DNA of 64,000 nucleotides from an uncultured delta proteobacterium (GTDB lineage: Bacteria > Desulfobacterota > Syntrophia > Syntrophales > UBA2185). Positions 3,196 through 11,884 of the stretch are shown piece by piece (position 1 is the first letter of the stretch; each line of letters starts with the position of its first letter). Under the pieces are notes generated by a model. It ran no database searches. It saw only the letters and a list, made by a program, of their open reading frames with translations, and had not been told where the DNA came from. The translations under genes and the position numbers were made by a program. The stretch spans positions 544,001-608,000 of the forward strand of contig CAVSPA010000004.1 in NCBI GenBank assembly GCA_963729715.1, in the 5' to 3' direction.

Positions 3196-4290
3196 GTGGG
3201 CTTCAAGTGCGGTATTATCGGGCTTCCGAATGTCGGGAAATCCACAATATTCAACGCCCTGACGGCCGCAGGAGCCGAAGTGGCCAATTATCCTTTCTGC
3301 ACCATCGACCCTAATATAGGGATTGTGCAAGTCCCGGATCAGAGGCTGCAAAGAATTGCTGAAATTGTCAGACCTCCCAAAGTCACTCCAGCCGCCATGG
3401 AATTCCTTGACATCGCGGGGCTCGTCAAAGGCGCAAGCAAAGGAGAAGGTCTCGGTAACAAGTTCTTGGGCCATATCAGGGAAGTCGATGCTATTGTGCA
3501 CATTGTCCGATGCTTCGATCATCCCTCTGTCGTCCACATCTATGGCCCCGTCGATCCTGAACGTGACATAGAGATAATAAATACAGAATTGATTATAGCC
3601 GATCTGGAGACCGTCGAAAAAAGAATTGCAAAGATCGATAGGCTTGCAAAAACAGGAGACAAGGCCGCTCGTAAAGAGTTAGATACGTGTCTCCGTATCA
3701 AGGACGTTCTCGTAACGGGAACCGCTGCACGTGAGATACCCTTCCAGGAAGATGAGCAGATGATCGTGCGAGATCTTCACCTGCTCACAGCAAAGAAAGT
3801 CCTGTATGTTGCTAATGTCAGTGAGGCTGCTCTCAAGGGTGCTACCGACTGTATCCTGAAGGTGGAATCGATTGCACGAAAGGAAGACTCAAATGCAATC
3901 GTCATCTGCGGGGATTTGGAAGCGGACATAGCAGAACTTCCTAAGGACGAGCAACAGGTATTTCTCAATGCTCTTGGCATAGAGGAGTTGGGCCTTAATA
4001 AGCTCATTCGTGCAGGGTACTCTCTCTTGGGATTGATAACGTTTTACACAACGGTCGGTCCGGAGCTCCGGGCTTGGACCGTGCCCCGCGGTTCCAAAGC
4101 GCCAGAAGCCGCGGGAAAGATACACAGTGATATGGAGGCGGGGTTCATAAAAGCGGATATAATACATCACGACGATTTTCTCAGAATGGGGAGCCTGTCT
4201 AGAGCGAAGGAAGCAGGACTAATCAGAATTGAAGGAAGAGATTATATAATAGCCGATGGCGATATTGCTTACTTCAGATTTCATGTTTGA
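3196..4290 (+). CDS. ychF: Redox-regulated ATPase YchF
   Basis: [41 protein letters not shown]-terminal TGS domain. Confidence 0.98.
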
Positions 4291-4412
4291 AAGCAATCGC
4301 CCATTCGAGGAAAGGCTCTTTATAGGGAAGAGACGGCTGAAAAGACGGATATAGGCGAATCATCCATTATGACATGAATGTTTGACCCTTCATCACCCAT
4401 CTGTACGGCGGA

Positions 4413-4451
4413 TCGGTGGATGGCAAAGGAGGGAAGGAAACCATCCACCGA
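4413..4451. other. Perfect 11-bp inverted repeat with a 17-nt loop (hairpin; possible terminator or sRNA domain)
   Basis: TCGGTGGATGG (4413-4423) pairs with CCATCCACCGA (4441-4451); loop CAAAGGAGGGAAGGAAA. Confidence 0.7.
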
Positions 4452-4485
4452 CTCAAAGTAAGAGAATTTCACAACGCAATGAGAA

Positions 4486-4722
4486 CTAATCTTCGTGGTA
4501 AAAAAAATCAGGAAGGAAAAATGTTTTGCTTTGATCTCTATCGTCTTCCCTTTTTACAGCCTCCCTCGGATCAACTCCATTTGGCAATTCCTCTTTAGCC
4601 CTGGCGTCCTCAGTGATGAAAAACTCATACTCAGTACCGAATTCACCAAGCTCTGATCCCGAGCCTGAGACGTTATCTTTCTAATTTGTATCTTTCTCTT
4701 TGCGTTTTTCCTCCTTTTTCAT
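4486..4722 (-). other. Candidate small acidic ORF (78 codons plus stop) interrupted by an in-frame TAG at codon 14; alternatively part of a non-coding transcript
   Basis: Manual translation: MKKEEKRKEKDTN*KDNVSGSGSELGEFGTEYEFFITEDARAKEELPNGVDPREAVKREDDRDQSKTFFLPDFFYHED*. Lies just downstream of a sigma54 promoter motif. No SD before the ATG. Confidence 0.4.
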
Positions 4723-4853
4723 TGAATATATATCTATTTATAATAAATTTTCGTGAGACCTCTGAGATCTACCTTTCATGTTTGCTCTATCGGCTATTAT
4801 TCCTAAAGGTTTCTTACGCTCTCGAGAGGTCTCTTCAAGTTGTATTTTACTTC

Positions 4854-4869
4854 TGCAAAATTGTTGCCA
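4854..4869 (-). promoter_or_regulatory. Sigma54 (RpoN) -24/-12 promoter
   Basis: Minus strand TGGCAACAATTTTGCA has exact GG-N10-GC spacing. An IHF site, palindromic UAS and an adjacent bEBP gene support it. Confidence 0.8.
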
Positions 4870-4941
4870 CTTTAATACTACCGTCAATCGGTATCTGCGA
4901 ATTTAGAGCAGAGAAATCGCAATGAGAGTATAAGTTCCGTA

Positions 4942-4954
4942 AATCAATAATTTA
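4942..4954 (+). promoter_or_regulatory. IHF binding site
   Basis: AATCAATAATTTA matches WATCAANNNNTTR and sits between the UAS pair and the sigma54 promoter. Confidence 0.65.
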
Positions 4955-5041
4955 CAAACCATCGCGAAGGTTACTTTCCATCTGAAACGAAGCGATTATT
5001 CTGAAACGGGCAGATTTGACTTGATGCCTTGAGGGATTATT

Positions 5042-5127
5042 TGTGCGATGAGGGCACAATATATTTGCCCGTCGGTTAACTAATTCTGAAATATCGCATG
5101 CTTTGATAATTGTGCGTGGACCGCACA
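5042..5127. promoter_or_regulatory. Two palindromic upstream activator sequences, TGTGC-N7-GCACA
   Basis: TGTGCGATGAGGGCACA (5042-5058) and TGTGCGTGGACCGCACA (5111-5127), 69 bp apart and about 170-260 bp upstream of the sigma54 promoter. Confidence 0.65.
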
Positions 5128-5158
5128 TATTGTGCTATAATGGCGTAATATCTCTTTG

Positions 5159-7306
5159 TCAATTGATATGCTTATCAATTTTCTTTCGTTCCCTGATGAA
5201 TTTGTAACGGGAAATGCTTAAATGCTTGGCCGCGGCAGTCTTGTTGCCCCCGCTTATTTCGAGAGCATTTTCAAGGATTCTTTCTTTAATGTCACCCATA
5301 ATTTTCTGCGTCACCGAGGTGTAATCTATTTCACCGGACGAGAGAGTGGGAAGAAACTTTTCAATCTCAACTTTGAGATATTTATAATTGGGAACAACCT
5401 TTATTTCTGTGGGAAGATCCTCCGGCGAAAGAGCGCTACCGAATTTCTGCAGTATCATGACCCGTTCAATTATGTTTTTCAACTCCCTTACATTCCCTGG
5501 CCAAGTATAGGCCTTCAAAATAAGCTCTGCCTCTTTACTGAACCCTCTAACTTTCTTGCCGAACTTCCTATTGAATTCTTCTATATAGTGCCTTGCCAAG
5601 AGAAGTATATCATCCGGCCTCTCACGGAGTGGTGGGATAACAATAGGAACCACTCTTATTCTGTAAAAAAGATCTTCGCGAAACGAGCCTTCACTGACCA
5701 TCTTGACAAGATCCATATTCGTTGAAAAAATGAACCTCACATCGATGGGTATATTTTCCGTTCCGCCAAGCCGCCTCACATAGCCGTTTTCCAGCATCCG
5801 CAGAAATTTTACCTGTAGTTGGATGCTCATATTTCCAACTTCATCAAGCAGTAGCGTGCCTCCATTGGCATATTCGAGAAGACCTATTTTCCTCTTGCGT
5901 GCATCGGTAAAGGCCCCCGGCTCATATCCAAATAGCTCACTTTCCAACAGCGTCCCCGGAATAGCAGCGCAATTAACGTCAACAAAGGGCCGAGAAGACC
6001 TGTTGCTCTGCCTGTGAATGGCGCGGGCAATCAATTCCTTGCCGGTACCGCTTTCACCCTGAATTAATATGTTTGTATTATGTGACGCCACTTCCTCAAT
6101 CACATGGAAAATACCGATCATCTTCTTTGATTTGCCGAGAATATTATGAAACCCGAGCAGAATATCTTCCCTCTCCTTCAGCTTTTCAACTTCCGTCTTG
6201 AGGGACTCTGCTTCGAGCGAAAGCATGGAATGCATAATGACGTTGTCATATGAGGTAACCGCGTTCTTAACGAGTATATCCAGGATATTTATTTGATCCT
6301 GCGAGTAGCTGCCTGTCCGCTTTGCAAGATACAGCGCTCCTTTAAACTTGTCTTTAATATGAAGCGGAAACGCTATTTCCGACGCGAACCCATCGTAAAC
6401 GGGCAGGGTTGGTGACTTTTCATCAGATTCACGCCTGACGATAATATTATTAGTGTCCATTGCCTGATTAATGATGCTCCTGCCTATCATCCCATCATAA
6501 GCCCTCCTATCCTCGATGAAGACATTGCCGCCGTCAGTGACGAGACACCGATCCTTTTCGATGTCCAGGAAATATACGAGAACCCTGTCGGCGCTCGCAA
6601 TTCGGAGCGCACTCTTGTTGAGAATGTCGAGTATGCGATTATCGAGGACACGACTTAAATTTATCTCCGAGACGGCTTCCTGAAGAATCATCAACTGACG
6701 GATTTTCTCCGCATTCGTCTCAAAGAGCCTTGTGTTGTGGATAACAATGCTCATCTGACTGGCAAATGTCAAAAAGAGGCTGATTTCCTCGGTGAAAAAT
6801 TTTGTTTCCTCTTTGCACCATGCCGCTATTGTTCCAATGACATCATCGCCTATCCTGAGGGGTACACATACAATGGAACCTTTACTGAGAATCTTCGTCA
6901 GCAAACGGTCAGTTTCCGTGATTCTCGGATCCGTAGCCGCGTCCTCGATGGCAATGACCTGGCCTGATCTTGCCACCTTGGTCGACAGACAGTCATGTTC
7001 GTAGATATTCAGGGCTACGGAAAATGCTCTCTCCGTCTCTTCAGGGCTGTAATTCTTTACGACCTTCGTTTCCAGATACTGTTTTGTCTCATCAAGAAGC
7101 CTGATTATCCCCATGTCGAAACCCATGGTATCGACAACTTCATCCAAAATTCTGGCCAGTATTTCATCCACATTGGAGGGAGCTGTAAGAAAAGTACTTA
7201 TGCGAAAAATACTCTTCAGCAATTTATCCTTGTCAAGCAGAGGTGGATTGGATGCTTCGTTGCGGAAATCTTCATCATCATTTATTCTTGCCATTGTTAA
7301 AATCAT
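5159..7306 (-). CDS. Sigma54-dependent enhancer-binding protein with two N-terminal GAF-like domains, AAA+ domain and Fis-type HTH
   Basis: Walker A GESGTGKE, ESELFG-x-EPGAFTDA, Walker B LLLDEV, FREDLFYR, WPGNVRELKN, HTH GNKTAAAKHLSISR. GAF-like segments around GSIVCVPLRIGDDVIG and SEIAFPLHIKDKFKGALYL. Confidence 0.93.
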   Translation of the reverse strand: MILTMARINDDEDFRNEASNPPLLDKDKLLKSIFRISTFLTAPSNVDEILARILDEVVDTMGFDMGIIRLLDETKQYLETKVVKNYSPEETERAFSVALNIYEHDCLSTKVARSGQVIAIEDAATDPRITETDRLLTKILSKGSIVCVPLRIGDDVIGTIAAWCKEETKFFTEEISLFLTFASQMSIVIHNTRLFETNAEKIRQLMILQEAVSEINLSRVLDNRILDILNKSALRIASADRVLVYFLDIEKDRCLVTDGGNVFIEDRRAYDGMIGRSIINQAMDTNNIIVRRESDEKSPTLPVYDGFASEIAFPLHIKDKFKGALYLAKRTGSYSQDQINILDILVKNAVTSYDNVIMHSMLSLEAESLKTEVEKLKEREDILLGFHNILGKSKKMIGIFHVIEEVASHNTNILIQGESGTGKELIARAIHRQSNRSSRPFVDVNCAAIPGTLLESELFGYEPGAFTDARKRKIGLLEYANGGTLLLDEVGNMSIQLQVKFLRMLENGYVRRLGGTENIPIDVRFIFSTNMDLVKMVSEGSFREDLFYRIRVVPIVIPPLRERPDDILLLARHYIEEFNRKFGKKVRGFSKEAELILKAYTWPGNVRELKNIIERVMILQKFGSALSPEDLPTEIKVVPNYKYLKVEIEKFLPTLSSGEIDYTSVTQKIMGDIKERILENALEISGGNKTAAAKHLSISRYKFIRERKKIDKHIN

Positions 7307-7321
7307 TCCCTTTCAGAACAA

Positions 7322-7831
7322 TTATGCCTCGTGCAACATGATGCTCAGGGCTGTCGTAAGCTTTACTGTGTCTTCGTCTGCTCTTCTCAATCTCGCACTC
7401 ACAATCCGCCCTAGATTCAACAGGATGCGATAACCAAGTTCATGGTCCTCTTCAGCAACCTTCAAGAAGTCATCCTTCCTCATTTCATACATGACGCAAT
7501 CCGTAACTGCACGTACCGAGGCGGTTCTTCTCAGTTCCTCAAGGAGCGCCATCTCCCCAAAGACGGCGCGCTGTTTGCCGTCCAGTCTCGTAAACACCTT
7601 GTTCTTCCCTGACTCCTCATCGTCTGCGTCCTCTATGACAAGACTCTTTACGATCTCTACGGTACCCTCCAGAATAATATACATCGTGTCTCCGATTTCG
7701 CCCTCTCTCATGATGATCTCATCGGCCGAAAAGGTAACCTTACGCAGGATACCCGCAATTCTTTGGATTTTTTCCGGAGCCAGGTTTTTAAAGAGGGCAA
7801 TATCCTTCAATGCAGCAATATCCTTATCCAT
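7322..7831 (-). CDS. Stand-alone cyclic nucleotide-binding domain protein
   Basis: IMREGEIGDTMYIILEGTVEI and phosphate-binding cassette FGEMALLEELRRTASVRA; no Crp HTH. Confidence 0.9.
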   Translation of the reverse strand: MDKDIAALKDIALFKNLAPEKIQRIAGILRKVTFSADEIIMREGEIGDTMYIILEGTVEIVKSLVIEDADDEESGKNKVFTRLDGKQRAVFGEMALLEELRRTASVRAVTDCVMYEMRKDDFLKVAEEDHELGYRILLNLGRIVSARLRRADEDTVKLTTALSIMLHEA

Positions 7832-7939
7832 CAGTTATCCCCCAAAGCACAGCCTCTAACTTTTTTGCAGCATTCACTAAATTCCAGAAACTATCGGGAC
7901 TTTCCATATGAGACGCATAAAAGATCCTTTCTCATCACT

Positions 7940-9109
7940 TCATCTGACCGGCATTACCCTTGAAAGTATCACGGCAAATTGTCCGTCTTTTATGATATAT
8001 CCATCGTCAGGATTTAAGATATATTGCGTCTCCTCCTTTTTATAAAAAAAATCTTTTTTTGATTCCTTTATTTTATCCTTAATAAAGGTATCAATAATGG
8101 ATGTATCATCCGATAAAATATCCGCCAGCTTCATTGCCTTCTTTTCCGTCAAGAGGCCTATCAGGATAGCGTGCTGCTTTTCCCTGTAAAATGACGATAA
8201 TTCTTTAAATGTGTTGCCGACAAAACTTCGGGGAATTTCTGCTCTCCATAATTTGTTGGTGTCGCCTATAGACAGCATGCTCGAAAATATTTTAGGGAGA
8301 CCCGGGGAATTAATCGCACTGGCGAGCAGCGAACCTACATGTTCACCCCTGATAACGATTTCATCAACATTTGCCCGTTTTAAATGCTGCTTGTTTTCAC
8401 CGTCAAGAAGCTCGGCAACAGTCTTAACGTTGGGTGCTATAGACTTGATTGTCAAGGCGGCAAGGGTTGTTCTTTCATCAATCCGCTCATGCGGATGGCT
8501 TCCCGATGTGTCTGCCATAATTAAGGCAAAGGCAGCCTTCGTTATATTAGCCCTGGAAAGGACATCTTCATGGACGTAATTACCCCTGAGAAATTTAAGG
8601 TTGTATTTGTCATACTTGAGCTTGAGGGAATCGACATCGTCAACCGGAAGTTCATTTATTAGGATGATTGGCGTGTCTTCCATGGAGCGGTACGTCGTCA
8701 GCACCTGGAGAACTTCTTCCGTATGCTGATTCCAGCCGCATAGAACAATGTGGTCTTTCTCCTTGACAGTTTCCAAACCTTTTCCCTCCTTAATCTTCCG
8801 TTCGACAAATATGGAGGCGATGGTTGCCGTGAAAAGAGACATCAATCCCACACCTGCAAAGATGAGTATCAACCCGACCGCTCTTCCACCCGCCGTTATG
8901 GGATATATGTCACCATAACCGACAGTGCCCATGGTTACCACAGCCCACCAAATTCCATCCCACAAAGACCGAATGGTGGATTCTTCCCCGGTACGTTCAA
9001 AATAATAAACGCTGGTTGCGCTGATAAAGATAACACTCAGGATGACAGTGGCGATCTGAACAAAGCGCTCCCTGTATAATCTTTTCATGAACTTTAAGAC
9101 CATCGCCAT
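7940..9109 (-). CDS. Potassium channel, 2TM pore plus RCK (TrkA-N) domain
   Basis: Pore helix and filter WWAVVTMGTVGYGD flanked by TM helices; RCK start HIVLCGW. Confidence 0.92.
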   Translation of the reverse strand: MAMVLKFMKRLYRERFVQIATVILSVIFISATSVYYFERTGEESTIRSLWDGIWWAVVTMGTVGYGDIYPITAGGRAVGLILIFAGVGLMSLFTATIASIFVERKIKEGKGLETVKEKDHIVLCGWNQHTEEVLQVLTTYRSMEDTPIILINELPVDDVDSLKLKYDKYNLKFLRGNYVHEDVLSRANITKAAFALIMADTSGSHPHERIDERTTLAALTIKSIAPNVKTVAELLDGENKQHLKRANVDEIVIRGEHVGSLLASAINSPGLPKIFSSMLSIGDTNKLWRAEIPRSFVGNTFKELSSFYREKQHAILIGLLTEKKAMKLADILSDDTSIIDTFIKDKIKESKKDFFYKKEETQYILNPDDGYIIKDGQFAVILSRVMPVR

Positions 9110-9197
9110 ATTTTGCTCAGATAACTACGATGCACCCGGTCAGCTTCGTTTGCTCTCGGTATGCAATAGTCGACGATTTCATCCATGGATAATTAAA

Positions 9198-11231
9198 TCA
9201 ACTCTTCCCGTATTCCAAGAAGCGCATGGAGAAAGTGGCCCTGCCTTGAGTTGCAGAACGCAAGTCCGTCGAATATCCAAACATTTCCTTCAGGGGAACT
9301 TTGCTCCTGATCTCGCTTATCGTCCCCTTTGGCGTGATTGCTTGAATTTCCCCGCCTCTTGCATTTATGTCTCCAATAACGTCACCCATAAATTCTGCCG
9401 GCACGATGACATCCACCATCATGATCGGCTCAAGCAGTATTGGATCAGCCTGCAAACAACCATTTCTGACTGCAGATGATGCGGCAATCTTATAGCCAAG
9501 CGTCGTAGATTCCCCTTCCCTGTACGATCCTCCAGTTATAGTTACCCTGATATCAACGATAGGGTAACCACTGATTGCGCCGCTGAGAGTCGCCTCTTCA
9601 ATACCCTCGTGTACGGCAGGATAAAATTCTTCCGGTATTGCGGATTCGCCGGTCTGCCCGACAATCTCGTTACTCTCTCCCCTGCTTCTCGGTTCAAGCA
9701 ATAGCCGAACATGACCGAAATGTTTTCTTTCGCCAAGTTCTTTTTCAAAGAGTCCGTCGATTTCTATTTTCTTTTGAATTGTTTCCCGATAGACAACCCT
9801 CGGCTTACCGACATTTACATAGGCGTTAAAATCTCTCTTTAACCTATCGATGACGATTTCCAGATGAAGTTCTCCCATGCCCGAAATTACGGTTTGAGCG
9901 GTCTCATCGTTATACTTCACATCAATTGTGGGATCTTCTTCTATGAGCTTGGCCAGCGCGACGGTAAGCTTCTCCTGATCAGCCGGCGTCTTGGCCTCTA
10001 TGGCCTGGCTTATGACGGGTCTATAAAACTCAATAGGTTCGAGAAGAATAGGACGGGACTCATCGCAGATCGTATTTCCCGTCGTCGCATCTTTGAGACC
10101 CAGAACGGCAACGATATCTCCGGCGCCGCACCTTTCGATTCTTTCCCGTTTATTGGCATGCATCTTCAATAGTCGCGCAATCTTTTCCTTTCTCCCGAGG
10201 CTTACATTATATACGGCATCGCCCACCTTTAGACGGCCCGAATAAACCCTAAGATAAGTCAACTTTCTGCCTTCATCCTGCCTGATCTTGAACGCCAAGG
10301 CAGCAAGGGGTTCATCCTCGCGGCTGTATCGCACCTCTTCCATTTTCGTCACAGGATTGAAACCCCTAACCGGCGGAATATCATCCGGTGAGGGAAGAAA
10401 ATGAACGATAGAATCAAGTATCGGCTGAATGCCCTTATTCCTCAAGGCAGAGCCGCACATAACGGGAACAGCTTTTAGAGAGATAGTTGCCTGCCTGATG
10501 GCTCTTATCATCTCTTTTTCCGAAACACCTGTTCCTTCCAGATATTTCTCCGCTATATAATCGTCCATCTCGGCGAGTGATTCAATCAGTTTCTCACGAT
10601 GCTCTTTGACCTGCGGAAAAACGTCAGATGGTATATCTGACACCGAATAAGACGACCCGAGTGTACTATCATCCCAGATAACTGCCTTCTGTTTGATCAA
10701 GTCTATGATGCCCCTAAACTGATCTTCCTCACCGAGCGGTATCTGTATCGGCAGCGGCACCGAATTAAACCTTTCGCCCATCGTCTTGATGGTACCGAAA
10801 TAATCTGCACCGACCCTGTCCATCTTATTGATAAAAGCTATTTTGGGGACGCCATATTTATCGGCCTGGTGCCAGACTGTTTCTGATTGTGGTTCAACAC
10901 CGCCAACAGCGCAAAACACGACTAATGTTCCATCTAGAACTCTCAGGCACCGTTCAACCTCCATGGTAAAATCCACATGACCCGGAGTATCTATTATCTG
11001 GATATCATGATTCTCCCAGGTGCAGGCTGTAACCGCGGAAGTAATCGTTATTCCTCTCTCCTGCTCTTGCGGCATCCAGTCCATTGCGGCTTCGCCGTCA
11101 TGAACCTCTCCCATCTTGTATAATATTCCCGTGTAGAAGAGTATTCTTTCGGTGACAGTGGTCTTGCCTGCATCTATATGGGCCACCACACCGATATTTC
11201 TTGTTCTTGAAAGTTTCTTTTTTGAAGCCAT
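9198..11231 (-). CDS. fusA: Elongation factor G paralog outside the str operon
   Basis: AHIDAGKTT, ERGITITSA, DTPGHVDF, NKMD, GMGELHLE, EMFGYSTDLRSATQGRA. Domain IV loops are divergent. Confidence 0.93.
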   Translation of the reverse strand: MASKKKLSRTRNIGVVAHIDAGKTTVTERILFYTGILYKMGEVHDGEAAMDWMPQEQERGITITSAVTACTWENHDIQIIDTPGHVDFTMEVERCLRVLDGTLVVFCAVGGVEPQSETVWHQADKYGVPKIAFINKMDRVGADYFGTIKTMGERFNSVPLPIQIPLGEEDQFRGIIDLIKQKAVIWDDSTLGSSYSVSDIPSDVFPQVKEHREKLIESLAEMDDYIAEKYLEGTGVSEKEMIRAIRQATISLKAVPVMCGSALRNKGIQPILDSIVHFLPSPDDIPPVRGFNPVTKMEEVRYSREDEPLAALAFKIRQDEGRKLTYLRVYSGRLKVGDAVYNVSLGRKEKIARLLKMHANKRERIERCGAGDIVAVLGLKDATTGNTICDESRPILLEPIEFYRPVISQAIEAKTPADQEKLTVALAKLIEEDPTIDVKYNDETAQTVISGMGELHLEIVIDRLKRDFNAYVNVGKPRVVYRETIQKKIEIDGLFEKELGERKHFGHVRLLLEPRSRGESNEIVGQTGESAIPEEFYPAVHEGIEEATLSGAISGYPIVDIRVTITGGSYREGESTTLGYKIAASSAVRNGCLQADPILLEPIMMVDVIVPAEFMGDVIGDINARGGEIQAITPKGTISEIRSKVPLKEMFGYSTDLRSATQGRATFSMRFLEYGKS

Positions 11232-11266
11232 GGGCCAACCCGAGAGTGAATCCCTCTATCCCTGCA

Positions 11267-11884
11267 TTACCCTTCTTTTGCACCCGGCGCCAACATGTCC
11301 TTATTGATGGTAAACGGCTGCCTCGTATCGATATGCCCCTTGATAGACTCCACGTCCTTCCCGTCTATCAATAACTTCACCCTCTTAATGCCACTGATAT
11401 TGCGTATCAGGGTATTGGTAAGCGAATATATTGTCGCCATTTCGCTGGCACTGCCGCCCGGATGTAGTTTGACAAGATTCTTGTCAAAGCTGACATAAGC
11501 GGTTTGTTTATCGTCTATTCTGACATTGTCGAGCGCCACACCTTCCGGGAAGGTCCTTACAAGCTTTGTCTTAGAACCCTCGAGCAAAGCCTTTACCAAT
11601 TCCCCGGCCCTGGCTTGGTCATTCTCTTCCTTGGGAATATACCTCTTTTCCGGAACTAAAAATCGCTCATTCGCATCGGAAAAATACAACACAACCTCCT
11701 GTTTTTCCTTCTTCGCGGCAGCATCCTTGGTTGTTGGGAACACATATTCGAAAGTTATTACAAAGAAAAGTATGAGACACGCTACAACGGTAGTAATAAT
11801 CAAAAAAAGAATAGACTTCTTCATGCGCTTCTTCTTTTTCTTTACCTTTATCTCATCCGTTCTTCTCTTTTTCTTTGTGGCCAT
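11267..11884 (-). CDS. GerMN domain membrane-anchored protein
   Basis: Basic N-terminus plus TM helix; LYFSD, LVKALLEG, GGSASEMATIYSLTNTL, VKLLIDG. Confidence 0.85.
   Translation of the reverse strand: MATKKKRRTDEIKVKKKKKRMKKSILFLIITTVVACLILFFVITFEYVFPTTKDAAAKKEKQEVVLYFSDANERFLVPEKRYIPKEENDQARAGELVKALLEGSKTKLVRTFPEGVALDNVRIDDKQTAYVSFDKNLVKLHPGGSASEMATIYSLTNTLIRNISGIKRVKLLIDGKDVESIKGHIDTRQPFTINKDMLAPGAKEG

Follow-up and report, generated by a model that had tools for sequence, protein, structure and literature searches.

A predicted sigma54 small RNA module with an anti-Shine-Dalgarno loop, found across the Syntrophales with a putative dedicated one-component activator

Two of the arrangements discussed here are known already: a bacterial enhancer-binding protein (bEBP) gene followed by a sigma54 promoter and a small RNA (sRNA), and a small ORF paired with hairpins that expose an anti-Shine-Dalgarno (anti-SD) sequence. 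In Myxococcus xanthus, the gene of the bEBP PxrR (Nla19) is followed by an enhancer, a sigma54 promoter and, ~260 nt downstream, the three-stem-loop sRNA Pxr; the parts of the two papers used here place the function of Pxr in its first loop and describe paralogues with their own sigma54 promoters, and no Hfq (PMC5684412, PMC5568312). In Desulfovibrio vulgaris, three EBPs (DVU0653, DVU0679 and DVU2359) have an ncRNA as their sole listed target, directly downstream in two cases, according to the sections consulted (PMC4641369). Excerpts of three further papers describe the CcaF1 (DUF1127)/CcsR1-4 ‘cuckoo’ RNAs of Alphaproteobacteria, in which a ~70-aa ORF precedes 3’ UTR anti-SD hairpins with redundant loops (PMC8034643), NfeR1, an Hfq-independent blocker of ribosome-binding sites (RBSs) also from Alphaproteobacteria (PMC10746234), and CJnc230 (FlmE) of Campylobacter jejuni, an RpoN-dependent sRNA that is processed from behind a coding region, carries an anti-SD motif and represses translation (PMC11187230). 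In methanogenic habitats, Syntrophales drive the breakdown of fatty acids and aromatics; our literature search, with most subscription journals outside its range, found no report on Syntrophales sigma54 sRNAs or on the RNA described below.

We analyzed a 64,000-nt stretch of DNA from an uncultured member of this order (hereafter, the window), in which a sequence-only reading had pointed to a sigma54 promoter in the gap between ychF and a bEBP gene. ychF (3196..4290, + strand) is the convergent neighbour and lies outside the sigma54 unit. The activator gene (5159..7306, − strand; the start is likely 7294, as judged from relatives’ upstream sequence) encodes a one-component bEBP of GAF-GAF-AAA+-HTH organization, with Pfam matches to GAF_2 in two stretches, Sigma54_activat and HTH_8. 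The Sigma54_activat AAA+ domain, Walker A/B and the C-terminal HTH are all present with invariant motifs, and GAFTDA stands in place of GAFTGA in 52 of 52 orthologue loci; one paper lists GAFTDA as an activity-keeping variant, and another leaves the question open. The Pfam domain search found GAF-GAF as the input region and no receiver domain. As to the GAF ligand, the GAF domains resemble those of phosphodiesterases only weakly (E 3e-5 to 8e-4), and the matches of a fold search came mostly from the ATPase. rpoN was found in the source genome. In the first GAF domain, His104, Cys106 and Cys147 (window 6866-6997, − strand; residues 104-147), which are conserved in 46, 48 and 43 of the 52 loci, respectively, could form a metal or redox site. 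Upstream of the activator (window 7322-11884, − strand) lie genes for a small exported protein, a second elongation factor G, an RCK-domain potassium channel and a stand-alone cNMP-binding protein; several activator orthologues lack the last two of these neighbours, which therefore give no pointer to the activator’s signal.

The gap contains the promoter elements in the proposed order. Two TGTGC-N7-GCACA palindromes lie where they had been placed, at 5111..5127 (enhancer site 2) and 5042..5058 (enhancer site 3), 69 bp apart; they are the only two matches in 64 kb, far above chance (chance 0.04; 0 of 100 shuffles reach 2). Both listed sites are thus present, but the count is three: a degenerate site with 6 of 8 core bases at 5131..5147 (enhancer site 1), the third copy of repeat family D1, had been overlooked, and its position holds a full match in relatives, e.g., L004, L006 and L011. 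The IHF consensus at 4942..4954 is an exact match, and the −24/−12 motif TGGCAACAATTTTGCA at 4869-4854 (− strand) is the single match in the window, both as described before. By itself, the IHF consensus occurs at chance level (4 seen versus 3.45 expected) and the −24/−12 motif is weak (chance 0.29); since neither is significant alone, they carry weight because of their position and conservation. C(−12) at 4855 gives a predicted +1 at ~4843, which agrees with the start site near 4843 given by the sequence-only reading.

Downstream of the predicted start is a leader hairpin (4751..4836, − strand; 85 nt) with ~19 bp, an asymmetric internal loop and a ~28-nt apical loop. The 9-bp stem reported earlier (4825-4833 with 4755-4763) is present and forms the base of this longer irregular hairpin. 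The leader hairpin has a folding z of −2.75, shows two-sided change in 10 of 19 pairs with 95.5% paired across 20 sequences, and scores 97 bits against its model, R2. R2 matches 23 of the 121 order genomes; 32 of its 34 matches precede a listed sRNA match by 30-450 nt, and the remaining two are also within such modules. The leader hairpin has a single AGGA, which 6 of the 20 aligned copies have lost. In L010 (G001) and L085 (G124), which represent two families, the enhancer, promoter and leader hairpin are retained behind the activator and the ORF and anti-SD hairpins are gone; each genome has an anti-SD copy elsewhere. Because it stands alone behind enhancer and promoter at these two loci, the leader hairpin may function on its own, and it is possibly a unit or RNA of its own.

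The 3’ RNA of ~150 nt consists of hairpin 1 with a UUCCCUCCUUU loop, a C-run, hairpin 2, which is variable, and hairpin 3 followed by a U-tract, often with a second anti-SD loop. In the window, hairpin 1 (4411..4453, − strand) has 11 bp, and its loop UUCCCUCCUUU at 4435-4425, which matches the 16S anti-SD tail, is entirely unpaired in the whole-transcript fold. The 16S 3’ end read from the source genome is GGAUCACCUCCUUUCU; the sequence shared by the loop and 16S, CCUCCUUU, is identical to the anti-SD tail, so that 8 nt of the anti-SD are copied in the loop. Hairpin 1 has a z of −5.04 and is 99% paired with two-sided change in 5 of 10 pairs. All three helices covary, with two-sided change in 19 of 27 pairs and 93.5% paired versus 37-57% in slid controls, a comparison that favours the structure because the structure was derived from the same sequences. 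The covariation score of the 3’ RNA was reached by 0 of 500 shuffles, and G-U pairs in the hairpin fix the strand of the RNA. The loop is single-stranded and nearly invariant across copies. No Rfam family reached its gathering score in the window region, in 10 loci or in the intact C3 copy of the source genome, and the hairpin pattern had 0 matches in viral contigs. A bistable middle region, with the C-run competing against hairpin 2, was considered and is not general, the C-run being paired at >0.5 in 12 of 28 copies. Tandem expansion to at least three anti-SD hairpins was seen at L045 (G022), L096 (G093) and L090 (G115), family f2.

Searching 61 genomes gave 49 loci behind activator orthologues, and TGGYA-N7-TGY was found within 1.5 kb of the activator gene in 43 of them, mostly 170-310 nt past the stop codon. 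Conservation beside orthologous bEBP genes had been named in advance as the test of the proposal, and the proposal passed it, with the −24/−12 motif present at these 43 of 49 loci. Among the six loci with no nearby motif, one is at a contig end, one has a deletion, one has the module displaced by 1.9 kb and three have the module elsewhere in the genome. The 43 loci hold 117 enhancer-like sites, with at least two sites in 42; the usual set is three sites with spacings of ~20 and ~69 bp. In 15 of the 43 loci, including all nine promoter-keeping loci of the genus, enhancer and promoter flank a perfect 9-of-9 IHF match. Identity to the window in nine loci of other genera was 0.78 for the promoter, 0.87 for the leader hairpin and 0.93 for hairpin 1 (spacers, 0.29-0.53); within the genus, it was 94% for the promoter, 93% for the IHF site and 97% for both the leader hairpin and hairpin 1. 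Across the family as a whole, the 3’ RNA is the sole module never absent from the core.

The RNA and the activator also go together in genomes. R1, the model of the 3’ RNA, matches 98 of 121 order genomes, and it had 0 matches in a sample of 145 genomes of the phylum that lie outside the order, searched with stricter filters, and 0 in 80 unrelated bEBP loci used as a control. Taking a GAF-region match at E below 1e-70 as an activator orthologue (99 genomes), both were found in 96 of the 121 genomes, the RNA alone in 2, the activator alone in 3 and neither in 20, three no-match genomes being placed by elimination; these counts overstate the association because kin are not independent. Joint absence covers two whole families and recurs within six mixed families. 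Selecting metagenome loci solely by the hairpin pattern gave 120, of which 58 were left after dropping 12 duplicates and 50 with <700 nt upstream. A same-strand −24/−12 motif was located upstream in 55 of the 58 (controls: wrong strand, 1 of 58; downstream, 0 of 43), and at least two enhancer sites in 52.

A matrix trained on activator-adjacent loci found 27 sites in the 3.76-Mb source genome, with only three clusters (window, C3 and C5), two of which were outside the training set. Each cluster lies 170-260 nt upstream of a −24/−12 motif, with a leader hairpin and an RNA copy at all three, and remote copies in other genomes have the same enhancer geometry. Judged by these matches, the activator’s regulon in the source genome appears to be the three copies of the module only. 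The source genome has 6.5% contamination; the single-contig genome G005 has the same three copies. In G038, the module has one weak enhancer site and the activator is not detectable, and in G057 the module’s enhancer sites are weak. RNA copies at L064, L078 and L082 have no promoter within 900 nt. One of them, L064:1503-1545 (G000 C9:28092-28149), is a lone anti-SD-like hairpin (33 bits) with no sigma54 motif upstream, directly behind an AMP-binding gene fragment that by eye is acetyl-CoA synthetase-like. Conversely, L088 (G110) keeps the enhancer and −24/−12 motif behind the activator with no RNA match; an ORF that by eye resembles succinyl-CoA synthetase beta begins ~290 nt downstream, and the promoter may have been rewired.

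The window copy itself is reduced. Hairpin 2 and the hairpin 3/terminator region (4340..4410, − strand) are eroded, with ~17 nt missing from hairpin 2 and the second anti-SD loop lost, and R1 scores this copy at 60 bits versus 122-127 bits for the other two copies of the source genome. Activator-adjacent copies in the genus score 56-71 bits (8 genomes), and two genus genomes have no activator-adjacent RNA at all. Among the 10 genus loci, L008 lost the whole module, L010 everything past the leader hairpin, and L006 the ATG and stop of the ORF. In the source genome, the C3 copy has intact hairpins and an intact ORF, and the C5 copy (G000 C5:362422-363026) kept three enhancer sites, the leader and all three hairpins through an internal deletion that took most of the ORF. 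With an in-frame TAG at codon 14 of the window ORF, a remote copy that is intact (at least 120 bits) in 10 of 11 genus genomes and module parts missing at L008, L010 and L006, the window copy could be taken for a silent relic, the remote copies alone being at work. This seems very unlikely, however: the promoter, IHF site, leader hairpin and hairpin 1 are 93-97% identical within the genus versus 64-81% for the spacers, compensatory changes in hairpin 1 are seen within the genus, and 6 of the 10 genus loci retain an intact ORF. Since its promoter, leader hairpin and hairpin 1 are still 94-97% identical in the genus, the window copy is reduced rather than dead; these three elements are, by comparison of genomes, under constraint, with the ORF broken and hairpins 2-3 eroded. 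The genus illustrates how such a circuit moves: decay affects the activator-side copy, and the remote copies, whose enhancer geometry is the same, remain intact.

The erosion also bears on the length of the transcript, for which the earlier estimate of ~430 nt with a 3’ end at ~4410 did not hold. There is no U-tract at ~4410; the homologous transcript is ~500 nt, and the homologous terminator position at ~4340 is eroded. No terminator-like site was found in 4290-5040, and the 3’ end of the window copy is not predictable from sequence. Given the eroded terminator and the converging genes, the transcript might be a cis antisense RNA that regulates ychF: the unit and ychF are convergent in most loci, and in the window no terminator separates hairpin 1 from the stop codon of ychF. 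This is hardly credible: a strong terminator hairpin is kept in most families, and genes other than ychF are the neighbours at remote copies, at several adjacent copies and in several families.

Between the leader hairpin and hairpin 1 lies a small ORF of 78 codons (4486..4722, − strand), in which the assembly has TAG at codon 14 (4683-4681) and relatives have CAG. Read-through by pyrrolysine was rejected because the ORF’s normal stop is also TAG, a PylRS-like search gave only two ordinary synthetase matches, and none of the 48 tRNAs has a CUA anticodon. The ORF leader (window 4723-4754) is AU-rich with no Shine-Dalgarno, and the first codons contain AAAGGAGGAA, the complement of the RNA’s own loop, a wording kept mainly in its own family. 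Homologues encode a charged peptide of 63-82 aa with two FF motifs, which are kept among the 26 aligned intact ones at 14-76% overall identity, and the peptide is predicted to be disordered (pTM 0.18). At L023 (G030) and the metagenome locus L295, the ORF ends just before the last FF motif, which L023 retains in frame past a TAG. No Pfam or NCBIfam family covers the peptide (none of 26 peptides hits DUF1127 or another Pfam family below E 0.02), and the best score in a protein atlas search, 0.77, was at chance level.

The sequence-only reading had left the product as an sRNA or a small-protein mRNA. Both modules exist in the family and the RNA is its conserved core, but the ORF is broken in this genome. 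PspA is a feedback inhibitor of PspF. By analogy, the small protein might be the main product, for example as a feedback inhibitor of the activator, with hairpins that only stabilise and terminate its mRNA. The peptide family is real, with 67 homologues (the named ones are hypothetical proteins, mostly from Syntrophales), its two FF motifs are conserved, and its disorder resembles that of linear-motif peptides. Nevertheless, in a manual count of the 42 loci with promoter and hairpins, the ORF is intact in 26, broken or partial in 7 (one an assembly gap) and absent or degraded in 9; it is present in 35 of 55 metagenome modules, broken in the window and deleted in the C5 copy, and a terminator would not need the conserved loop. 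A main role for the protein is thus quite improbable, and the comparison of loci indicates that the small ORF is dispensable within the module.

We consider it probable that the gap is a sigma54 unit run by the adjacent bEBP and yields an anti-SD sRNA that blocks RBSs independently of Hfq. The ATPase would be switched on by a small molecule sensed by the tandem GAF domains, the HTH would bind three YGTGC-N7-GCACR sites (~20 and 69 bp spacing), and IHF would bend the DNA to the −24/−12 promoter. The predicted transcript of ~500 nt would comprise the leader hairpin, the small ORF and the ~150-nt three-hairpin 3’ RNA, which, where the ORF is present, would probably be freed by processing. By analogy with NfeR1 and CcsR, the exposed UUCCCUCCUUU loops would base-pair with strong Shine-Dalgarno sequences, shutting off translation with no need for Hfq. 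A search of 41 genomes found Hfq in none of them, in keeping with seeds that are displayed in loops and, as in NfeR1, require no chaperone.

With CCCUCC in the loop in place of the ACCUCC of 16S, the best pairing partners would be RBSs that contain GGAGGG. GGAGGG-type sites precede ORFs 56 times in the genome, and among ten such genes chosen by eye are those for three CoA transferases, three acyl-CoA ligases, an acyl-CoA dehydrogenase, fumarase beta and an MFS transporter. The anti-SD seed is unspecific, with AAAGGAGG at 89 of 3404 crude gene calls; many RBS-pairing partners are possible, and none of those compared is conserved across the order. Two top candidates were rejected as order-wide targets: pairing with the CoA-transferase RBS holds in 6 of 7 genus orthologues only, and that with the fumarase-beta RBS in four family-level loci only. 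Negative feedback on the activator’s own RBS was also rejected, the 10-nt complement to hairpin 2 being lost even in the closest relatives. In G026, G047 and G065 (family f6), the fumarase-beta gene is followed by a remote RNA copy ~750 nt downstream.

Sigma54 RNAs present in several copies can act as sponges, CrcZ/CrcY being an example. The hairpins might likewise be protein decoys, bound by a reader of the 16S 3’ tail or of C/U-rich loops on a GGYGGRYGG stem, with the RNA acting as a sponge from the same promoter. The stem sequence is unusually conserved (3 of 10 hairpin 1 pairs never vary) and is repeated as well as the loop, with up to three hairpins in a row, which fits protein recognition too, and the target search gave no conserved target. 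We regard the sponge as unlikely, since the loop is an exact complement of strong RBSs and fully accessible, and the Syntrophales loops, unlike those of CsrB/Rsm-type sponges, are pyrimidine-rich and lack the repeated GGA motifs read by CsrA, which is present in the genome. Moreover, the part of the NfeR1 paper used here demonstrates RBS pairing by anti-SD loop RNAs that do not depend on Hfq (PMC10746234). RBS blocking stays our preferred reading. An extended form of it, speculative and rather unlikely, would make three separable products the whole output of a one-component sensor, namely an 85-nt leader RNA, a disordered peptide with two motifs and an anti-SD mimic. The mimic would brake strongly translated mRNAs broadly, rather than a few targets, without Hfq, throttling protein synthesis when the syntroph’s energy margin collapses; the best-matching RBSs in the source genome include those of CoA transferases, acyl-CoA ligases and dehydrogenases.

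In summary, comparative sequence evidence points to a genuine and hitherto undescribed sigma54 sRNA module that is order-wide and comes with its own dedicated one-component activator. An RNA family, promoter, enhancer motif and probable activator come in one package across the order, which makes the module directly testable, even in E. coli. If the proposal is true, Hfq-free anti-SD sRNAs extend beyond Alphaproteobacteria and Campylobacter. The following comparisons refer to the sections of the cited papers used above. First, like Pxr, the Syntrophales RNA lies behind a bEBP gene with its own sigma54 promoter and has three stem-loops in intact copies (the window copy has the first hairpin only). 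Unlike PxrR, which is a two-component response regulator, the Syntrophales activator is a one-component GAF-GAF protein; in contrast to Pxr, the loop is an anti-SD copy, the unit can hold a leader hairpin and an ORF, and there is no Rfam match. Second, the Desulfovibrio EBP-ncRNA pairs come from the same phylum and also dedicate an EBP to an ncRNA, but two of those EBPs are response regulators, and R1 matched 0 of 145 phylum genomes outside the order. Third, FlmE differs in belonging to a flagellar regulon, having a single-stranded seed and lacking a dedicated activator, and the cited sections show no sequence relation to the Syntrophales RNA. At last, CcaF1-CcsR shares the small ORF followed by repeated hairpins that expose an anti-SD. 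The cuckoo, CcsR and alpha-r14 loops are, however, CCUCCUCCC and not UUCCCUCCUUU, the stem sequence is variable in alpha-r14 and conserved here, and CcaF1-CcsR has an RpoH promoter rather than a sigma54-type promoter, a DUF1127 peptide, which the Syntrophales peptide is not, and a place in another phylum. As far as its sequence features indicate, the Syntrophales RNA works like both PxrR-Pxr and CcaF1-CcsR and belongs to neither.
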